From: Candidatus Bathyarchaeota archaeon
GTDB taxonomy: Archaea > Thermoproteota > Bathyarchaeia > 40CM-2-53-6 > RBG-13-38-9
NCBI GenBank assembly: GCA_963807605.1
Contig: CAWECG010000001.1
Location: forward strand, 535,410 to 599,409
Direction of reading: 5' to 3'
Length of the DNA stretch: 64,000 nt
A model generated the notes under the pieces. The model saw nothing but the letters and a program-made list of their open reading frames with translations. It searched no databases and was not told the origin of the DNA. The translations under genes and the position numbers were made by a program. Below, piece by piece: positions 27,177-53,406 of the stretch (positions within the stretch are counted from its first letter, which is position 1; each line of letters opens with the position of its first letter).

Positions 27177-27282
27177 GGGCCGGTAGTTCAGCTTGGTATA
27201 CATATTGGCCAATGAACGTCCGGTTCGCATGAACCTCTGAGAAACCGGAAGGTCGCGGGTTCAAATCCCGCCCGGTCCACCA
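27177..27282 (+). tRNA. tRNA-Ala(CGC) with two 14-nt introns (D-loop 27200-27213; canonical 37/38 at 27230-27243), CCA encoded
   Basis: Acceptor stem GGGCCGG/CCGGTCC with G3:U70; D stem GTTC/GAAC; anticodon stem TCCGG/CCGGA; T arm GCGGG-TTCAAAT-CCCGC; both introns fold into BHB motifs. Confidence 0.92.
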
Positions 27283-27547
27283 CCATGAATCCTAGGCTGT
27301 CGGAATATTCGAGTTTTACGCTTGGATGCGCCTCATGTCTAGGTTCTAATGTTTGAATGTTTAGGGTCTAAGGATACGAATCACGGCCGCTGTTTAGATT
27401 AGCGTGCCCTCTCTATCAGATTCTTTCTCTGACCAGCGTAAGTTTAAGACCCCAGTCCTTATTTGAGATTGTTTCAGAACCCAGTACGCGCGCGTCGTAG
27501 AAGAATCGGATTTTGCTCAAGTTGAATAGGCCTCTCGCCTTGGTTAG

Positions 27548-28768
27548 TTATCTGGCCATTGCTCTGTTGAAGATTGGCACAGCGATTGCCATAGTGACCA
27601 CTGAGTATGCTAGGAGCACCAGCAGATCAGGCATGATGATGTTCACACTCGCATTCAGTATGACTACTTTTTTGAGAGCATCCGCGGCGTAGTAGAGAGG
27701 GAAGGCTTTGCCGATGTATTGTACGGGTACAGGTAACTGGTTGATTGGGAACAGTATCCCGCTGAGAAACATCATTGGGAACTGAAGTAGCGTTGTCATC
27801 ATCTGTGCTGTTTCCTGTTCAGGAGCGAGAGAGGTCATGATTATGCCGACGCCGATGAAGCTGGCTACACCAAGCACCATGACAAGAAGCATGATAACAG
27901 GACTGCCGTAAATCACTACTCCGAACAATAACATTGATAACCCAAGTATTAGGAATCCTTGAATTAATCCCCGTGTTGTTTGCGCTGCAATCTTCCCTAT
28001 GATAACGGATTGTCTGGGAATGGGTGCGACAAGTAATCCGTCCATTGTTCCTTGTTCTTTTTCTCTAGAGATGGCGGAGCTGACTCCGTTTAATGCTCCT
28101 GTGATAACGGTTAACGCCATGAATGACGGAGCTAGATATTCGAAGGATGTTGGGACACCTGGGATTAATGGAATGTTCGTCATGCTGATCGGTTGAAGAG
28201 CGAATGTTGGGTTACCTTTTGGGTCTAAGTTTTGCTGAAGGTATTGTGTTGATATTTGGCTTTCGATTGCTCCGAGAATTTCTGCGACTTCACTTTGAAC
28301 GGCGGCGGCTACTGTTGGATTTGTTTGGTCAACTGTTATTTGTATTGTGGCCTGCGCGTCAGCCTGAATTGCAGCGCTGAATCCTTGGGGTATGATCACT
28401 ATTCCTGACAGGTGGCCTTTCACAATTCCGTTTCTGGCTGTTGAGTAATCGGTCATTTCATTTACTCTGAATATTCCTTGGGATTCAGCAATGTGAATGA
28501 ATTGAGCGCCAACATTACGCGCTATTTGTCCGCTATCCTGTTGAATCATGGCTAACTCCAAGTTTGGGTATGGTGACGGTATTTGGCCACTGTACGGATT
28601 TACTTGAACTGGGGGTGGGTAAATGAAACCGAACATTGTCATGAAAAGCAGGGGCATCATGATGAAGAAGACGAGAAGCATCTTTGCTCGCCATAAATCG
28701 AGCAGGTCGCGTTTAGCGATTTCAGTGGTAACTTTCCATCCGCTCACCTGCCTTGCTTTAGTTTGCAC
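27548..28768 (-). CDS. ABC-2 type exporter permease
   Basis: REKEQGTMDGLLVAP, FLSGILFP; six TM helices plus an extracellular loop. Confidence 0.92.
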   Translation of the reverse strand: MQTKARQVSGWKVTTEIAKRDLLDLWRAKMLLVFFIMMPLLFMTMFGFIYPPPVQVNPYSGQIPSPYPNLELAMIQQDSGQIARNVGAQFIHIAESQGIFRVNEMTDYSTARNGIVKGHLSGIVIIPQGFSAAIQADAQATIQITVDQTNPTVAAAVQSEVAEILGAIESQISTQYLQQNLDPKGNPTFALQPISMTNIPLIPGVPTSFEYLAPSFMALTVITGALNGVSSAISREKEQGTMDGLLVAPIPRQSVIIGKIAAQTTRGLIQGFLILGLSMLLFGVVIYGSPVIMLLVMVLGVASFIGVGIIMTSLAPEQETAQMMTTLLQFPMMFLSGILFPINQLPVPVQYIGKAFPLYYAADALKKVVILNASVNIIMPDLLVLLAYSVVTMAIAVPIFNRAMAR

Positions 28769-28770
28769 GT

Positions 28771-29583
28771 TTACATTCTCCCTACAGCTTTCATACTAAC
28801 GCGGTCTGAAGCTGAATCACGTAGCTCTCGGCCTGTAACAGTCAGGAAAACTTCAAGCATCGACTCTGTACCATACTCGTTCTTAAGACCCGCAACAGTC
28901 CCCGTTGCCATGATTTTTCCATGATCCATAATCGAAATGCAATCCGATAATTCGTCTGCTTCTTCCATTATGTGGGTAGTCAGAATGATCGTATGTCCCT
29001 TCTTCTTCAGGTCTAGTATTGTGTCCCTGACAAACTTCGTGCTTTGCGGGTCAAGCGCAGTGGTTGGCTCATCTAGAAAGATGATTTCAGGATCGTGAAT
29101 TAAGGCGCGGATCACATTCATTCTTTGTCTCATCCCGCTTGAGAAGCCACCTACGCTTCGGTCTTTGAAGGGCGTCAGCTTCACCATATCCAATAATTCC
29201 TCGACCTTCGACTTCAATTCTGCCTTATCTATTCCGTAGAGTTTGCCGAAGAAAATTAGGTTCTGTTCAGCCGTCAATCGTGTGTACATGATTAGTTTCT
29301 CTGAGACTAGTCCGATTCGTTTTCGAACCTCATTGGCTTCACTATCAATGTTAAATCCTGCAACCCTCCCTGTGCCTGAAGTTGGCTTAAGTAACGTGCA
29401 AAGCATACGAATGGTAGTACTTTTTCCTGCGCCATTCGGCCCAAGAAACCCATAGATTGTCCCCCTTCGGACGGCAAGGTCGACGTGGTCGACTGCTGTG
29501 AAGCTACCGAATTTCTTCGTCAGACCATGAGTCTCAATCGCATACTCGGATAGTGGAGCCAATTCGGTTCTCTGGGGAGTCAT
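28771..29583 (-). CDS. ABC exporter ATP-binding subunit (DrrA-like)
   Basis: GPNGAGKST, FSSGMRQR, LDEPT, TTH. Confidence 0.95.
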   Translation of the reverse strand: MTPQRTELAPLSEYAIETHGLTKKFGSFTAVDHVDLAVRRGTIYGFLGPNGAGKSTTIRMLCTLLKPTSGTGRVAGFNIDSEANEVRKRIGLVSEKLIMYTRLTAEQNLIFFGKLYGIDKAELKSKVEELLDMVKLTPFKDRSVGGFSSGMRQRMNVIRALIHDPEIIFLDEPTTALDPQSTKFVRDTILDLKKKGHTIILTTHIMEEADELSDCISIMDHGKIMATGTVAGLKNEYGTESMLEVFLTVTGRELRDSASDRVSMKAVGRM

Positions 29584-29673
29584 TATGATGCCTCTGTCGA
29601 TTGTTATTGTGTCTCCGAGTGCATTACGTTTAGCAGGGCTATCGTGTTATTCCTTATTCGTGCGGTTTGATAC

Positions 29674-29743
29674 ATCGATACGATACTATCTTATCGATAG
29701 TTGGTAATATTTAAATACGTCGCCTGATGTATCGATACGATAC
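29674..29743. promoter_or_regulatory. Putative PadR operator repeats in the divergent promoter
   Basis: ATCGATACGATAC at 29674-29686 and 29731-29743, plus TATCGATA at 29692, around TATA-like TTTAAATA. Confidence 0.55.
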
Positions 29744-29753
29744 AGGTGCGGCG

Positions 29754-30155
29754 ATGCTCATGGCGAAGGGATTCCAGACGGGCCCTTATGAGGTAATGTT
29801 CTTTCTGGCGTTGAAGGATGGACCCGCCTATGGGTATGAACTGGCCACACGATTCAAGAGGATGACTAGGGGCCACATTAAGGTTAGTTTCGGTACCATA
29901 TACCCTTTCCTACGTCGCATGGAGCGGAGAGGAATAATCAAATCGAGTCGAAAGGAAAGGTCTGGCAGAGTATACTATGCACTAACTCCGAAAGGCCGAA
30001 CGGCTCAAGAAAGGGTTTTGAAGCAAATCAAGAAGTCTCAAAAGGAATGGGAGGAGAAGTTGCTGGGTATTCTAGCAATGCATGCAGAAGTGTTTGGACG
30101 TAGAGCGCTTCACGACCTGTTGGAACGTGGAAAACTCTTGGCGAAAACGTCATGA
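29754..30155 (+). CDS. PadR family transcriptional regulator
   Basis: GPAYGYEL, GTIYPFLRRME, YYALTPKG. Confidence 0.9.
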   Translation: MLMAKGFQTGPYEVMFFLALKDGPAYGYELATRFKRMTRGHIKVSFGTIYPFLRRMERRGIIKSSRKERSGRVYYALTPKGRTAQERVLKQIKKSQKEWEEKLLGILAMHAEVFGRRALHDLLERGKLLAKTS

Positions 30156-30240
30156 TAGGATGTCTGGTGAAAGCATGAAACTGCGGGGCCCCTTGGAGGA
30201 GCAACGGGCACCCAATCGCCGGTCGGTCAGTTTTTTTGCA

Positions 30241-30500
30241 TCAGCAATGGGCCTTTTTCTGTTCTGTAGGTTCACTGATGAGTAATGGTTTCTTGTTCCA
30301 TCTGATCACCCAATCGGCGAGTTGGAGTAGCAGTGCATGCAGCTCCCGGCCTTTCTTGGTGAGTGAGTACTCGACTCTTGGAGGAGTTTCAGGGTACACT
30401 CTTCTCTGAACTATTCCCCGTTGTTCCAGCTCCTTTAGCCGCTCCGTTAAGCTGGTGGCACTTATCGAGCCAAGCCTCTTCTTCAGCTCGTTGAATCTAC
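30241..30500 (-). pseudogene. HxlR family wHTH regulator, 5'-truncated
   Basis: RFNELKKRLGSISATSLTERLKELE..PPRVEYSLTKKG; the upstream frame is not HxlR-like. Confidence 0.75.
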
Positions 30501-30501
30501 A

Positions 30502-30645
30502 CCAGAAATGATGAAGAAATTTCCACAGGATCTGCCGCCGATGATTTCCAAGATGGAGGAGATCATGGCAGGAGTGGAAACCTATGATCTCAAAACTTAC
30601 CGAGTCAAAATAGAGGAGGATAGTATATTCGTGAAAGTTGAATAA
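30502..30645 (+). pseudogene. C-terminal fragment of a probable Rieske-type ferredoxin
   Basis: PEMMKKF...VETYDLKTYRVKIEEDSIFVKVE*; the Cys/His ligand part is missing. Confidence 0.5.
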
Positions 30646-31067
30646 CAAGCACATCCTAATTTGGACATTTTTTATTCATAATCTTAGACCCTAGACATCC
30701 TAAGATTCAAAACTTTAGAACCTAAGCGAATTGGCCTCCTGAATGTAAAGTCTGAATATTCCGACACCCTGTGAATCCCTACTTTGGGCTGTTTTTCAGC
30801 CTGTCCCCAACCTTCTTTCTGCTCTTTCTTAGCTGAAACTCTGCTTGGTTGACAGTTCAAAACTATAGTCTAAAGCTATCCTGGCCCACCAAAATTCTTG
30901 AAGTATGCCATATGCCCCTGCACCAAGTCCTGGTACAACGATGCCCATCATGACGCGCGCCAGCCCCGTCCGATCATGGAATTGGAAACGATGTGTGGTC
31001 GTGCTAGCCAAGATTTGTATTGGCTATTCCTTTAATACGGTCGTCGCAAATTTCATCACGAGACAAG

Positions 31068-52036: not shown

Positions 52037-52082
52037 ACTCTAATCGTCTAGACTTTGCCTAATAATGCTTCGGATAGCGCGC

Positions 52083-53187
52083 TGGGTTGTCCCGATATTA
52101 GCGTTTTCATGTTAGGTTTGTCCAGTGTGTTATGCTTCTGGTTTTGGTGGGTTGTTTGGTGTTGTGTGAGGCTTCTATGGTGTAGAGTAGGCATAGTATG
52201 CAGTAGCTGGTGTGGATGGTGATGTTTTCTAAGCCTCTTGTTTTGTGATTGTTGAGGGTGAGGTGTTCTTTGAGTGATGCGAAGACGAGCTCTATGGTTG
52301 AGCGTTTCTTGTAGATGCGTTTGAGGTTTTCTGGGCCGTGTGTTTTGAAGTCGCTGGTTACTCTGAGGATGTTTTGTCTTTCAGGGTTCTGGTTGGCTGG
52401 GTAGGGTATCGCGGTCTTGATTTTGTGTCTTTTAGCGGTCTCTCTGAGTCTGTTGCTGGAGTATTGACTGTCAGCGGTTAGCTGTCGGATTCTGATTGCT
52501 GTGGTTTTAACTGTCATTTTGAGGAGTGGTATGCTGAGTTTCTTCTCGTTAGTGTTTGCTGGTGAGATGAGGAAGGCTAGGGGTGTCCCTGTGTCTGCAT
52601 CGACTGTGAGGTGTAGTTTGTAACCTAGGCTGTATGTGCGGTAGGCTCTTCCTACACGGGCTTCAGGGTCGCTGAAGCCTGTTCTATTGTTTATGTTGCG
52701 TCTGCTGTAGGCTTTGATGAAGGTAGCGTCCATAGCGACTATCCTGGGTTTTGCTATGTGTTTCTTCAGCAACTTCTTGACCTGTTTGTTTACTATGCGT
52801 CTTAGTCTTCTTGCGCCTAGCCGCTGGTTGAATCTTGAGAGTACCGTCCTACCGTACGCTGGCTCCTCATATCTTATGCCGCATATGTCACGTAGCCTCT
52901 CATCATGACATAAGTGGCGTTCAAGATCACGCAGACTGCTCATTCTCAGGTAGCGTCTGGCGAGGTGTGCCTTGAAGAGTCCTAAGGGGTTTCGTGGAGG
53001 TTTACCTGGACCGTCTTGATGATAGCAGCTAACAATGAGGCGTTCAACAAACGATAAATCCAGATTACTCAGCAGTGACTCCAGAGTCTCGTACCCTTCT
53101 ATCTGGAATCGCCTCCAAGTAGGAGGGTGTGGGGCTCAAACCATATGGATCTTTCCGTGTCAACTCAAAGAATATCGGGACAAGCCC
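52083..53187 (-). mobile_element. Insertion sequence (IS1182/IS5-like DDE)
   Basis: TIR GG(G/C)TTGTCCCGATATT at 52084-52099 and 53171-53186; flanks are themselves inverted repeats ending in GCGCGC. Confidence 0.88.
52107..53135 (-). CDS. DDE transposase (start region apparently frameshifted)
   Basis: GPGKPP N-terminal motif, MDATFI, GYKLH, TADSQY, YKKRSTIELVF; frame stays open upstream of the annotated M at 52943 to a TGA near 53137. Confidence 0.85.
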   Translation of the reverse strand, partial: APHPPTWRRFQIEGYETLESLLSNLDLSFVERLIVSCYHQDGPGKPPRNPLGLFKAHLARRYLRMSSLRDLERHLCHDERLRDICGIRYEEPAYGRTVLSRFNQRLGARRLRRIVNKQVKKLLKKHIAKPRIVAMDATFIKAYSRRNINNRTGFSDPEARVGRAYRTYSLGYKLHLTVDADTGTPLAFLISPANTNEKKLSIPLLKMTVKTTAIRIRQLTADSQYSSNRLRETAKRHKIKTAIPYPANQNPERQNILRVTSDFKTHGPENLKRIYKKRSTIELVFASLKEHLTLNNHKTRGLENITIHTSYCILCLLYTIEASHNTKQPTKTRSITHWTNLT

Positions 53188-53406
53188 GCGCGCTATCCGA
53201 ATCTCTAAGCCTTCTAGGTAGAATCTCTATTGCGGCCTGTTCCGGTTCCTCAATAGGAATTACAACTATCTTAAGGCTCAAATCTTGAGTCCGACCAGTA
53301 AGTAGAAAGACATAATGTCCAACAAATGTATTAACGCGCGCGCTATAGATCTCCTTGATAAAATAATCTGGTTCATCATTTGAAAGCTGCCTTTTGTGCA
53401 CGTTAA

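Follow-up and report, generated by a model that had tools for sequence, protein, structure and literature searches.

A probable transposase-less cargo transposon behind a tRNA-Ala gene of a Bathyarchaeota archaeon

The stretch of DNA analysed here (the window) comprises 64,000 nucleotides of a Candidatus Bathyarchaeota archaeon and corresponds to contig C1:535410-599409 of its genome (G000, 2.65 Mb in five contigs). A transposon of 3,479 bp (27293-30771) was identified in the window just 3' of a tRNA-Ala(CGC) gene, with imperfect inverted ends of ~100 nt enclosing the genes of an ABC exporter and of two regulators (Table 1). Both ends have in common the tip (T/C)AGG(C/G)TGTCGGAATATTC and subterminal motifs of the TTAGGNNCTAA type. 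The 13-nt core TGTCGGAATATTC was found exactly at 27298-27310 on the plus strand and at 30754-30766 on the minus strand, which were its sole two matches in the 64 kb, while 0.12 would be expected. The motif TAGGKTCTAA occurred four times in the window (27340, 27362, 30684 and 30715), every time within the element ends; its expectation is 0.23 per window, and four or more were reached in 0 of 100 shuffles. The left and right ends could be aligned across ~100-110 nt and were ~70% alike, with a 9-nt block of the right end missing from the left.

On the far side the element reads GAATATTCCGACACCCTG up to 30771, followed by TGAATCC. The two copies of TGAATCC form a perfect 7-bp duplication, directly abutting the tips TAGG.../...CCTG; it may be 8 bp if one mismatch is allowed. 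An uninterrupted site was revealed in a genome of the same genus (G001, contig C46), where CCCACCATCATGAATCCTTGCTTTGGGCTGG equals the left flank of the window element, a single TGAATCC and the right flank. Thus both ends moved together and 7 bp were duplicated, and two independent remnants of MITEs (miniature transposable elements with inverted repeats) or of ends were ruled out by this site. The original prediction, made from the letters of the window, had read one non-autonomous cargo transposon just 3' of tRNA-Ala, with inverted ends sharing a 13-bp identical core, two internal TAGG(T/G)TCTAA repeats per end and a perfect 7-bp TGAATCC duplication, and had proposed that a single TGAATCC should be sought at an empty site; the ends, the four repeats, the duplication and the G001 site all bear it out.

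Table 1. Features of the element and its flanks in the window, and related ends at other loci
Feature	Position	Strand	Remarks
tRNA-Ala(CGC) with encoded CCA	27177..27282	+	Two putative 14-nt introns: 27200-27213 (D-loop), 27230-27243 (position 37/38)
Target-site duplication, left copy TGAATCC	27286..27292	.	+7 to +13 from discriminator base 27279
Left (L-type) terminal inverted repeat	27293..27392	+	Tip TAGGCTGTCGGAATATTC; motifs TAGGTTCTAA 27340-27349, TAGGGTCTAA 27362-27371
ABC-2 type transporter permease, 406 aa	27548..28768	-	Pfam ABC2_membrane_3, 1.1e-41
ABC transporter ATPase, 270 aa	28771..29583	-	Pfam ABC_tran, 9.7e-31
Divergent control region, ABC operon/padR	29584..29726	.	Two direct repeats TGATRYATCGATACGATAC: 29668-29686, 29725-29743
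PadR-family regulator, 142 aa	29727..30155	+	Pfam PadR, 1.2e-17
HxlR-like winged-helix regulator	30241..30654	-	Pfam HxlR, 1.8e-24, profile positions 15-88 of 91
Right (R-type) terminal inverted repeat	30672..30771	-	Minus-strand tip CAGGGTGTCGGAATATTC; motifs TAGGGTCTAA 30684-30693, TAGGTTCTAA 30715-30724; extra 9-nt block
Target-site duplication, right copy TGAATCC	30772..30778	.	Read off the sequence
Remainder of interrupted ~125-nt repeat unit	30779..30900	+	Ends in tRNA-3'-end-like CCTGGCCCACCA; 83-85% identical units elsewhere
Other L-type ends	G000 C5:73945; G001 C138		
Other R-type ends	G000 C1:394809, C3:747006, C3:765538, C3:452172		

Between the element ends, the Pfam search gave ABC-2, ABC_tran, PadR and HxlR only, and a transposase was not found there. 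The flanks of the element were composed of the tRNA and metabolic genes, with no transposase next to the element. The direct repeats TGATRYATCGATACGATAC in the divergent control region are probable operators of PadR. The HxlR-like open reading frame (ORF) looks close to whole, with an uncertain start codon and perhaps slight decay. Two small ORFs (30082-30285 and 30508-30645) were without any family match in the Pfam search. Of the cargo first described as an ABC exporter, PadR and two gene fragments, the exporter and PadR were thus identified by Pfam, and the fragments were not confirmed, given the near-whole HxlR-like ORF and small ORFs without a Pfam family. A diverged paralogue of the PadR-ABC genes, 67-76% identical, was observed at C3:159895-162099 of the same genome, with a counterpart in G001 as well; hence this module is an ordinary, captured operon of the lineage.

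The tRNA-Ala(CGC) gene was missed intact by ARAGORN and by the Rfam tRNA model, the latter matching just tRNA-like ends. When both 14-nt inserts were excised, ARAGORN returned a tRNA-Ala(CGC) cloverleaf with G3:U70 and the encoded CCA. Genes for tRNA-Ala with two short introns (D-loop and 37/38) belong to this lineage, being also seen at L117, L119, L124, L153 and G000 C3:1083325, and two-intron orthologues stand before tips of the same kind in other genomes. On the flanks of these other loci the two-intron tRNAs were likewise missed or misnamed by ARAGORN; it is because of the two introns that the tRNA-Ala genes of the lineage escape both tools.

The DNA behind the right copy of the duplication (30779..30900) is host or att-type DNA and lies outside the transposon. 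Units 83-85% identical to it were present at G000 C3:313600-313671, G001:C46, G001:C334 and G002:C17. Behind the unit of G001:C46 (L107:1490-1680) come another tRNA-like end and an ORF which resembles a tyrosine recombinase by eye, and in front of the unit stands the palindrome GTCGGATTCCGAC, possibly a mini T-arm or a pair of collapsed transposon tips.

The ends of the window element were not alone in the genome. In G000, seven ends of ~100 nt were identified as clear copies, besides several distant ones. Since the L-type and the R-type are both conserved in themselves, the asymmetry of the ends is by design. Only cargo or host genes adjoined every other end in G000, where a transposase was not found. 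The whole ~110-nt end was confined to G000 and its genus-mate: a search of viral contigs gave none, genome contigs gave one true hit, and 401 class genomes, a class-level sample treated as Bathyarchaeia, gave no further true hits. The 16-nt tip pattern AGGSTGTCRGAAWATT reached further, with 32 hits in 16 of the 401 Bathyarchaeia genomes versus 3 in the reversed control.

Members of very different size were revealed by these tips. Three sites of genome G333 (L118, L137 and L149) bear MITEs of ~135 nt, whose tip is GAGGCTGTCAGAAAATTC and whose 3' end resembles an inverted tip; their mutual identity is 83-97%. A complete member of 16.4 kb was found in genome G229 (C1:1552260-1568707, L155). It has a tip on either side and subterminal motifs of the form TTAGGCCATAAG, and its 8-bp duplication ACTGAATA is perfect and likewise starts at +7 behind a tRNA-Ala(CGC) gene; no empty site for it was found within its genus. 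This member is a defence-type island carrying an MvaI/BcnI restriction enzyme and methylase, DruA, HerA-NurA, an IrrE-like peptidase and a weak PARP-like match. The cargo of further members included helicases, Fic, MazF, HerA-NurA and methylases. No partner tip was found for G319:C48, and for G323:C135 the contig ended before any second tip. Two elements on contig C4 of G000 held TnpB-like genes only between the same tips, which indicates that RNA-guided nucleases ride the family as cargo. The Bathyarchaeia transposon family with this tip is undescribed, and it also carries TnpB nucleases and defence islands.

A protein with SWIM and zinc-ribbon modules (170-196 aa) recurred in the family. Its gene was located 0.5-1.1 kb from the tip in G002, G319 and G229, and ~1 kb from the sole tip of a short G001 contig; the G229 copy neighbours a gene for a PD-(D/E)XK/Cas4-like nuclease.

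The family was repeatedly found behind tRNA genes, as the original prediction had suspected in pointing to target selectivity. Of ~44 credible tips, about 12 closely followed the acceptor end of a tRNA or tRNA-like sequence on its 3' side: eleven were 10-14 nt from the discriminator base, by our own count on the flanking sequences, and one was 25 nt away. Full two-intron tRNA genes in seven genomes accounted for 7 of the 12, and 5 of these 7 were tRNA-Ala (CGC, TGC or GGC anticodons). In G000, a family tip stood 9-10 nt past the CCA at 5 of ~13 CCCGGTCCAC(C/T)A sites, and an autonomous IS5-like element at one. The orientation relative to the tRNA was variable: in the window it is the L-type end that points to the tRNA, while at C3:765538 an R-type end is turned towards the tRNA-like end.

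Such a distribution could arise with no directed targeting at all, if the tRNA adjacency stemmed from one or a few ancient inherited insertions, or from survival only in harmless spacers, and if the window element were an old decayed transposon. In favour of this, several hits were behind orthologous-looking tRNA-Ala(CGC) genes of related genomes, and the flanking ORFs of the G004 and G007 copies were 72% identical, so these two are probably one ancestral insertion; the spacing to the tRNA end ranges from 8 to 14 nt, and the window ends have the low mutual likeness given above. On the other hand, the tRNA-adjacent copies are unrelated in sequence beyond the 17-nt tip, as are their spacers, the window and G229 duplications are both perfect with the same +7 start, and the five tRNA or pseudo-tRNA ends of G000 bear tips of differing subfamilies and orientations. 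Moreover, an autonomous copy of an IS5-like insertion sequence (IS) in G000 (IS-A, C3:1083302) took the same place, 9 nt after the CCA of tRNA-Ala(TGC). By our own estimate, the chance of falling in a 5-nt window behind ~50 tRNAs is ~1e-4 per insertion. Absence of targeting is therefore considered very unlikely, and the landing looks directed from the sequences compared, this being the simplest reading despite the kinship of the genomes.

A candidate for the missing enzyme came from members in other genomes. The G229 element contains, 0.5 kb inside its left tip, a gene of 348 aa with DDE_Tnp_1 and DUF772 domains, which is without inverted repeats of its own and is followed by a conserved small ORF. 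A DDE_Tnp_1 gene 64% identical to it was likewise 0.5 kb inside the tip in G323, and, of the five genomes where homologues of the candidate transposase occur, four also had family tips. By sequence profile the candidate protein is nearest to IS1182 and IS5 in NCBIfam, a likeness at the superfamily level only. The family could therefore be placed with IS5/IS1182-like DDE_Tnp_1 elements with moderate confidence, which tentatively supersedes the earlier statement that no family could be assigned.

Compared with IS5 and IS1182 elements, the family has in common the DDE_Tnp_1 and DUF772 domains of the candidate, whose best NCBIfam matches are IS1182 and IS5_4, and a tip like that of the IS5-like elements resident in G000 (14-15 of 18 positions). 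It differs in that the candidate is under the curated cut-offs, the duplication is 7-8 bp, the elements reach up to 16 kb with large cargo, and extra genes are conserved, namely a winged-helix-like ORF, the SWIM/zinc-ribbon protein and the PD-(D/E)XK nuclease. To our knowledge, no IS5 or IS1182 element is known to target a tRNA flank.

No close homologue of the candidate enzyme was found in G000, where its relatives were just 26-29% identical. Consequently, the window copy may be a fossil, or it may need the enzyme in trans or cross-mobilisation. These relatives were 14 copies of 1.1-kb IS5-like elements belonging to the same NCBIfam profile group, whose tips TAGCCTCTTGCAATATTC agree with TAGCCTGTCGGAATATTC in 15 of 18 positions and with the left tip of the window element in 14 of 18. 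An IS5-like element, IS-A, is located in the window itself (~52075-53195); it is 1.12 kb long with the tips TAGCGCGC(G/T)GG(G/C)TTGTCCCGATATT, and has at least seven copies, of which two compared pairs were ~99.8% identical, with flanks mostly ending in TA. The resident IS5-like elements seem, from flanks ending in TA, to give very short duplications instead of 7-8 bp, so cross-mobilisation by them is doubtful and they are probably not the mobilisers.

An ISH6-family transposase beside the copy on C5 was also considered as a partner and rejected, since it belongs to a self-contained IS of ~1.3 kb with its own repeats GTGCCGYGCAGTGAYGGGTTAG, nested there (metagenome copies). This IS (L010:4320-5640; G000 C5:~74318-75640) matched NCBIfam NF041731 with 289.5 bits and has a 412-codon frame with one in-frame TGA. 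It is nested in a family copy 120 nt before the contig end, and its metagenome relatives were 80-95% identical.

In our reading, the window element at 27293-30771 is probably a non-autonomous cargo DNA transposon, or 'mobile insertion cassette'. The Bathyarchaeia family to which it belongs most likely relies, in its autonomous members, on a DDE_Tnp_1/DUF772 transposase (IS4/IS5/IS1182 superfamily). The whole 3,479-bp unit was inserted in one piece, with a staggered duplication of 7 bp; an enzyme acting in trans would have bound the tip and subterminal motifs at both ends and carried out the integration by DDE chemistry. The family would be steered to sites 10-14 nt behind tRNA genes, for the most part those of tRNA-Ala, and behind sequences resembling a tRNA 3' end, which would offer a harmless landing place, and the recurrent SWIM/zinc-ribbon protein is one candidate for the site selector.

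Several observations weigh against this reading. The NCBIfam scores of the candidate were below every equivalog cut-off (116-131 bits versus 270 for IS1182, and 64-75 versus 140 for IS5_4). The homologue in G319 (40% identical) is 4.8 kb from its tip, and the one in G168 is without a tip nearby. The link of the enzyme to the ends consists of two genomes of one genus and of co-occurrence, and the likeness of any autonomous copy to the ends of the window element stops at the 18-nt tip and the type of motif. Among the IS5-like residents, the seemingly short duplications described above point the same way. The remaining ends in G000 were mostly solo, beside unrelated genes and without duplications. 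The G001 empty site sits behind a pseudo-tRNA end and not behind an orthologous tRNA-Ala gene. The spread of the spacing counts here too, and, as the genomes are kin, their counts are not independent.

The enzyme could instead be one of the archaeal IS6-like transposases of G000 (376-386 aa, with SWIM finger, zinc ribbon and IS240-type DDE), which would make the element a cargo transposon of IS6/IS26 type. Four intact genes and many fragments of these transposases were present in G000, where they are read as active, and one fragment was within the C3:765538 copy, sitting, however, among other IS debris. Their N-termini were 26-35% identical to the stand-alone SWIM/zinc-ribbon proteins of the family, and zinc-finger modules for DNA binding are recurrent in the family; yet longer relatives of the SWIM/zinc-ribbon protein fused to a DDE domain were searched for and none was found. 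The IS6 terminal inverted repeat consensus GGTTCTGTTGCAAA has GG at positions 1-2 and G at 7 (PMC6807381). Against it, the tip TAGGCTGTCGGAAT of the family has G7 and G10 but is without the defining GG at 1-2; C5-T8, G10 and A12-A13 are in common, giving a loose likeness (CTGT...G..AAA). At 8 of 14 positions this is further than the 14-15 of 18 shared with the resident IS5-like tips. The duplication is 8 bp in G229, like that of IS26, while that of the window is 7 bp (8 only with one mismatch). The IS6-like elements of G000 themselves have a clearly different tip, GGYTCTGTCAAGTC... (GGYTCTGTCAAG), one of them with a 9-bp duplication, and an IS240-type DDE gene adjoined the family tip in none of ~30 loci. 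Mobilisation by the IS6-like transposases is accordingly judged improbable.

The IS6-like transposons of G000 were also observed in their own right. One at C4:158106-160975 encodes a SWIM/zinc-ribbon/IS240-DDE transposase between 51-nt inverted ends beginning with GGYTCTGTCAAGTC, together with two small extra ORFs, and is flanked by the 9-bp duplication CTTGTGGCA; ~30 tips like its own were dispersed over the genome. At C1:394764-394824 an R-type end of the family described here directly adjoins base 45 of an IS6-like tip (GGTTCTGTCAAGTCT...), while a second copy of that tip (C1:401466) is without such a neighbour, pointing to nested or stacked insertions.

Membership in another tRNA-homing, site-specific class, i.e., a Tn7-like element, a casposon or a tyrosine-integrase island, had some appeal, because the element adjoins a tRNA 3' end, the subterminal repeats number several per end, as in Tn7 and IS21, and many tRNA-end-like repeats were present in G000 and its relatives. 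Tn7-like elements beside tRNA genes are described from archaea, including one from Bathyarchaeia (bioRxiv 10.1101/2025.07.27.667033), and genes for a PD-(D/E)XK/Cas4-like nuclease and a HerA ATPase are inside the G229 element. Nevertheless, TnsB (rve), TnsC, TniQ, IstA/IstB, Cas1 and integrase were found neither in the window element nor in the complete 16.4-kb G229 member, and the duplication of 7-8 bp contrasts with 5 bp for Tn7 and ~14 bp for casposons. The insertion is fully outside the tRNA, and the far end is without a direct repeat of the tRNA 3' part; the orientation relative to the tRNA is not fixed either. Each class was rejected on its own grounds: a Tn7-like element by the absence of TnsB, TnsC and TniQ from both elements and a duplication other than 5 bp, a casposon by the absence of a Cas1 gene between the ends together with the duplication length, and a tyrosine-integrase island by inverted ends, a repeat limited to the 7-bp spacer and no integrase between the ends. 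The likeness to Tn7, IS21 or casposons suggested by the original prediction was hence not borne out: none of the members examined yielded parts of that kind, and a duplication of 7-8 bp differs from 5 or 14-15 bp. It is extremely improbable that the element is of these classes.

Tn7-like elements which home to tRNA genes, including archaeal ones and CRISPR-associated transposons (CASTs) of types V-K, I-B2 and I-D, produce a 5-bp duplication (bioRxiv 10.1101/2025.07.27.667033). The family resembles them in inserting a short set distance 3' of an undamaged tRNA gene, in its subterminal repeats and in large, often defence cargo, and differs in being without TnsA/B/C or TniQ, in its 7-8 bp instead of 5 bp, in its free orientation and in probably having a single DDE_Tnp_1 enzyme.

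Mobile insertion cassettes, such as MIC231 of Bacillus cereus and the qnrD mic elements, hold passenger genes between inverted repeats of an IS family and depend on a transposase in trans (PMC3913671). Like these, the window element has IS-type inverted repeats around passenger genes, no internal transposase and a target-site duplication; by the definition of PMC3913671 it is a mobile insertion cassette, with mobilisation in trans as the part that we infer. Unlike them, it resides in an archaeal host, its ends are ~100 nt long, asymmetric and provided with subterminal motifs, its parent IS family is undescribed, and a preference for tRNA flanks is seen. A comparison can also be made with TnpB elements having symmetric ends of DDE type (Altae-Tran et al. 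2023), the detailed DDE-linked case being IS630 (PMC10691335). The two G000 elements with a TnpB-like gene alone between family tips are alike in this respect, whereas the window element is without TnpB and the published detailed case, IS630, is of another family.

Beyond the probable cassette, a bolder possibility, to which we give a low though not negligible probability, is a homing system of two parts. An IS5/IS1182-like DDE transposase, steered by the SWIM/zinc-ribbon protein or by itself, would recognise the acceptor/CCA end of tRNA-Ala and insert a fixed 6-7 nt downstream, so that tRNA genes would serve as a safe harbour in the manner of Tn7 but without TnsC and TniQ, for cargo up to 16 kb including defence islands and TnpB nucleases. 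Such a system would be new for archaea.

The window element presents a case of ordinary operon mobility in uncultured archaea, in which an efflux pump with its regulators is carried on a transposase-less cassette. What is unusual is that the family lands repeatedly at 10-14 nt behind genes for tRNA-Ala and behind ends resembling a tRNA. Since two-intron tRNA genes escape the standard tRNA finders, associations of tRNA and transposon are easily overlooked. If indeed recognition of a tRNA gene end lies with a plain IS5-like enzyme, or with a small partner protein of zinc-finger type, the family would represent a compact natural system for site-directed DNA insertion.

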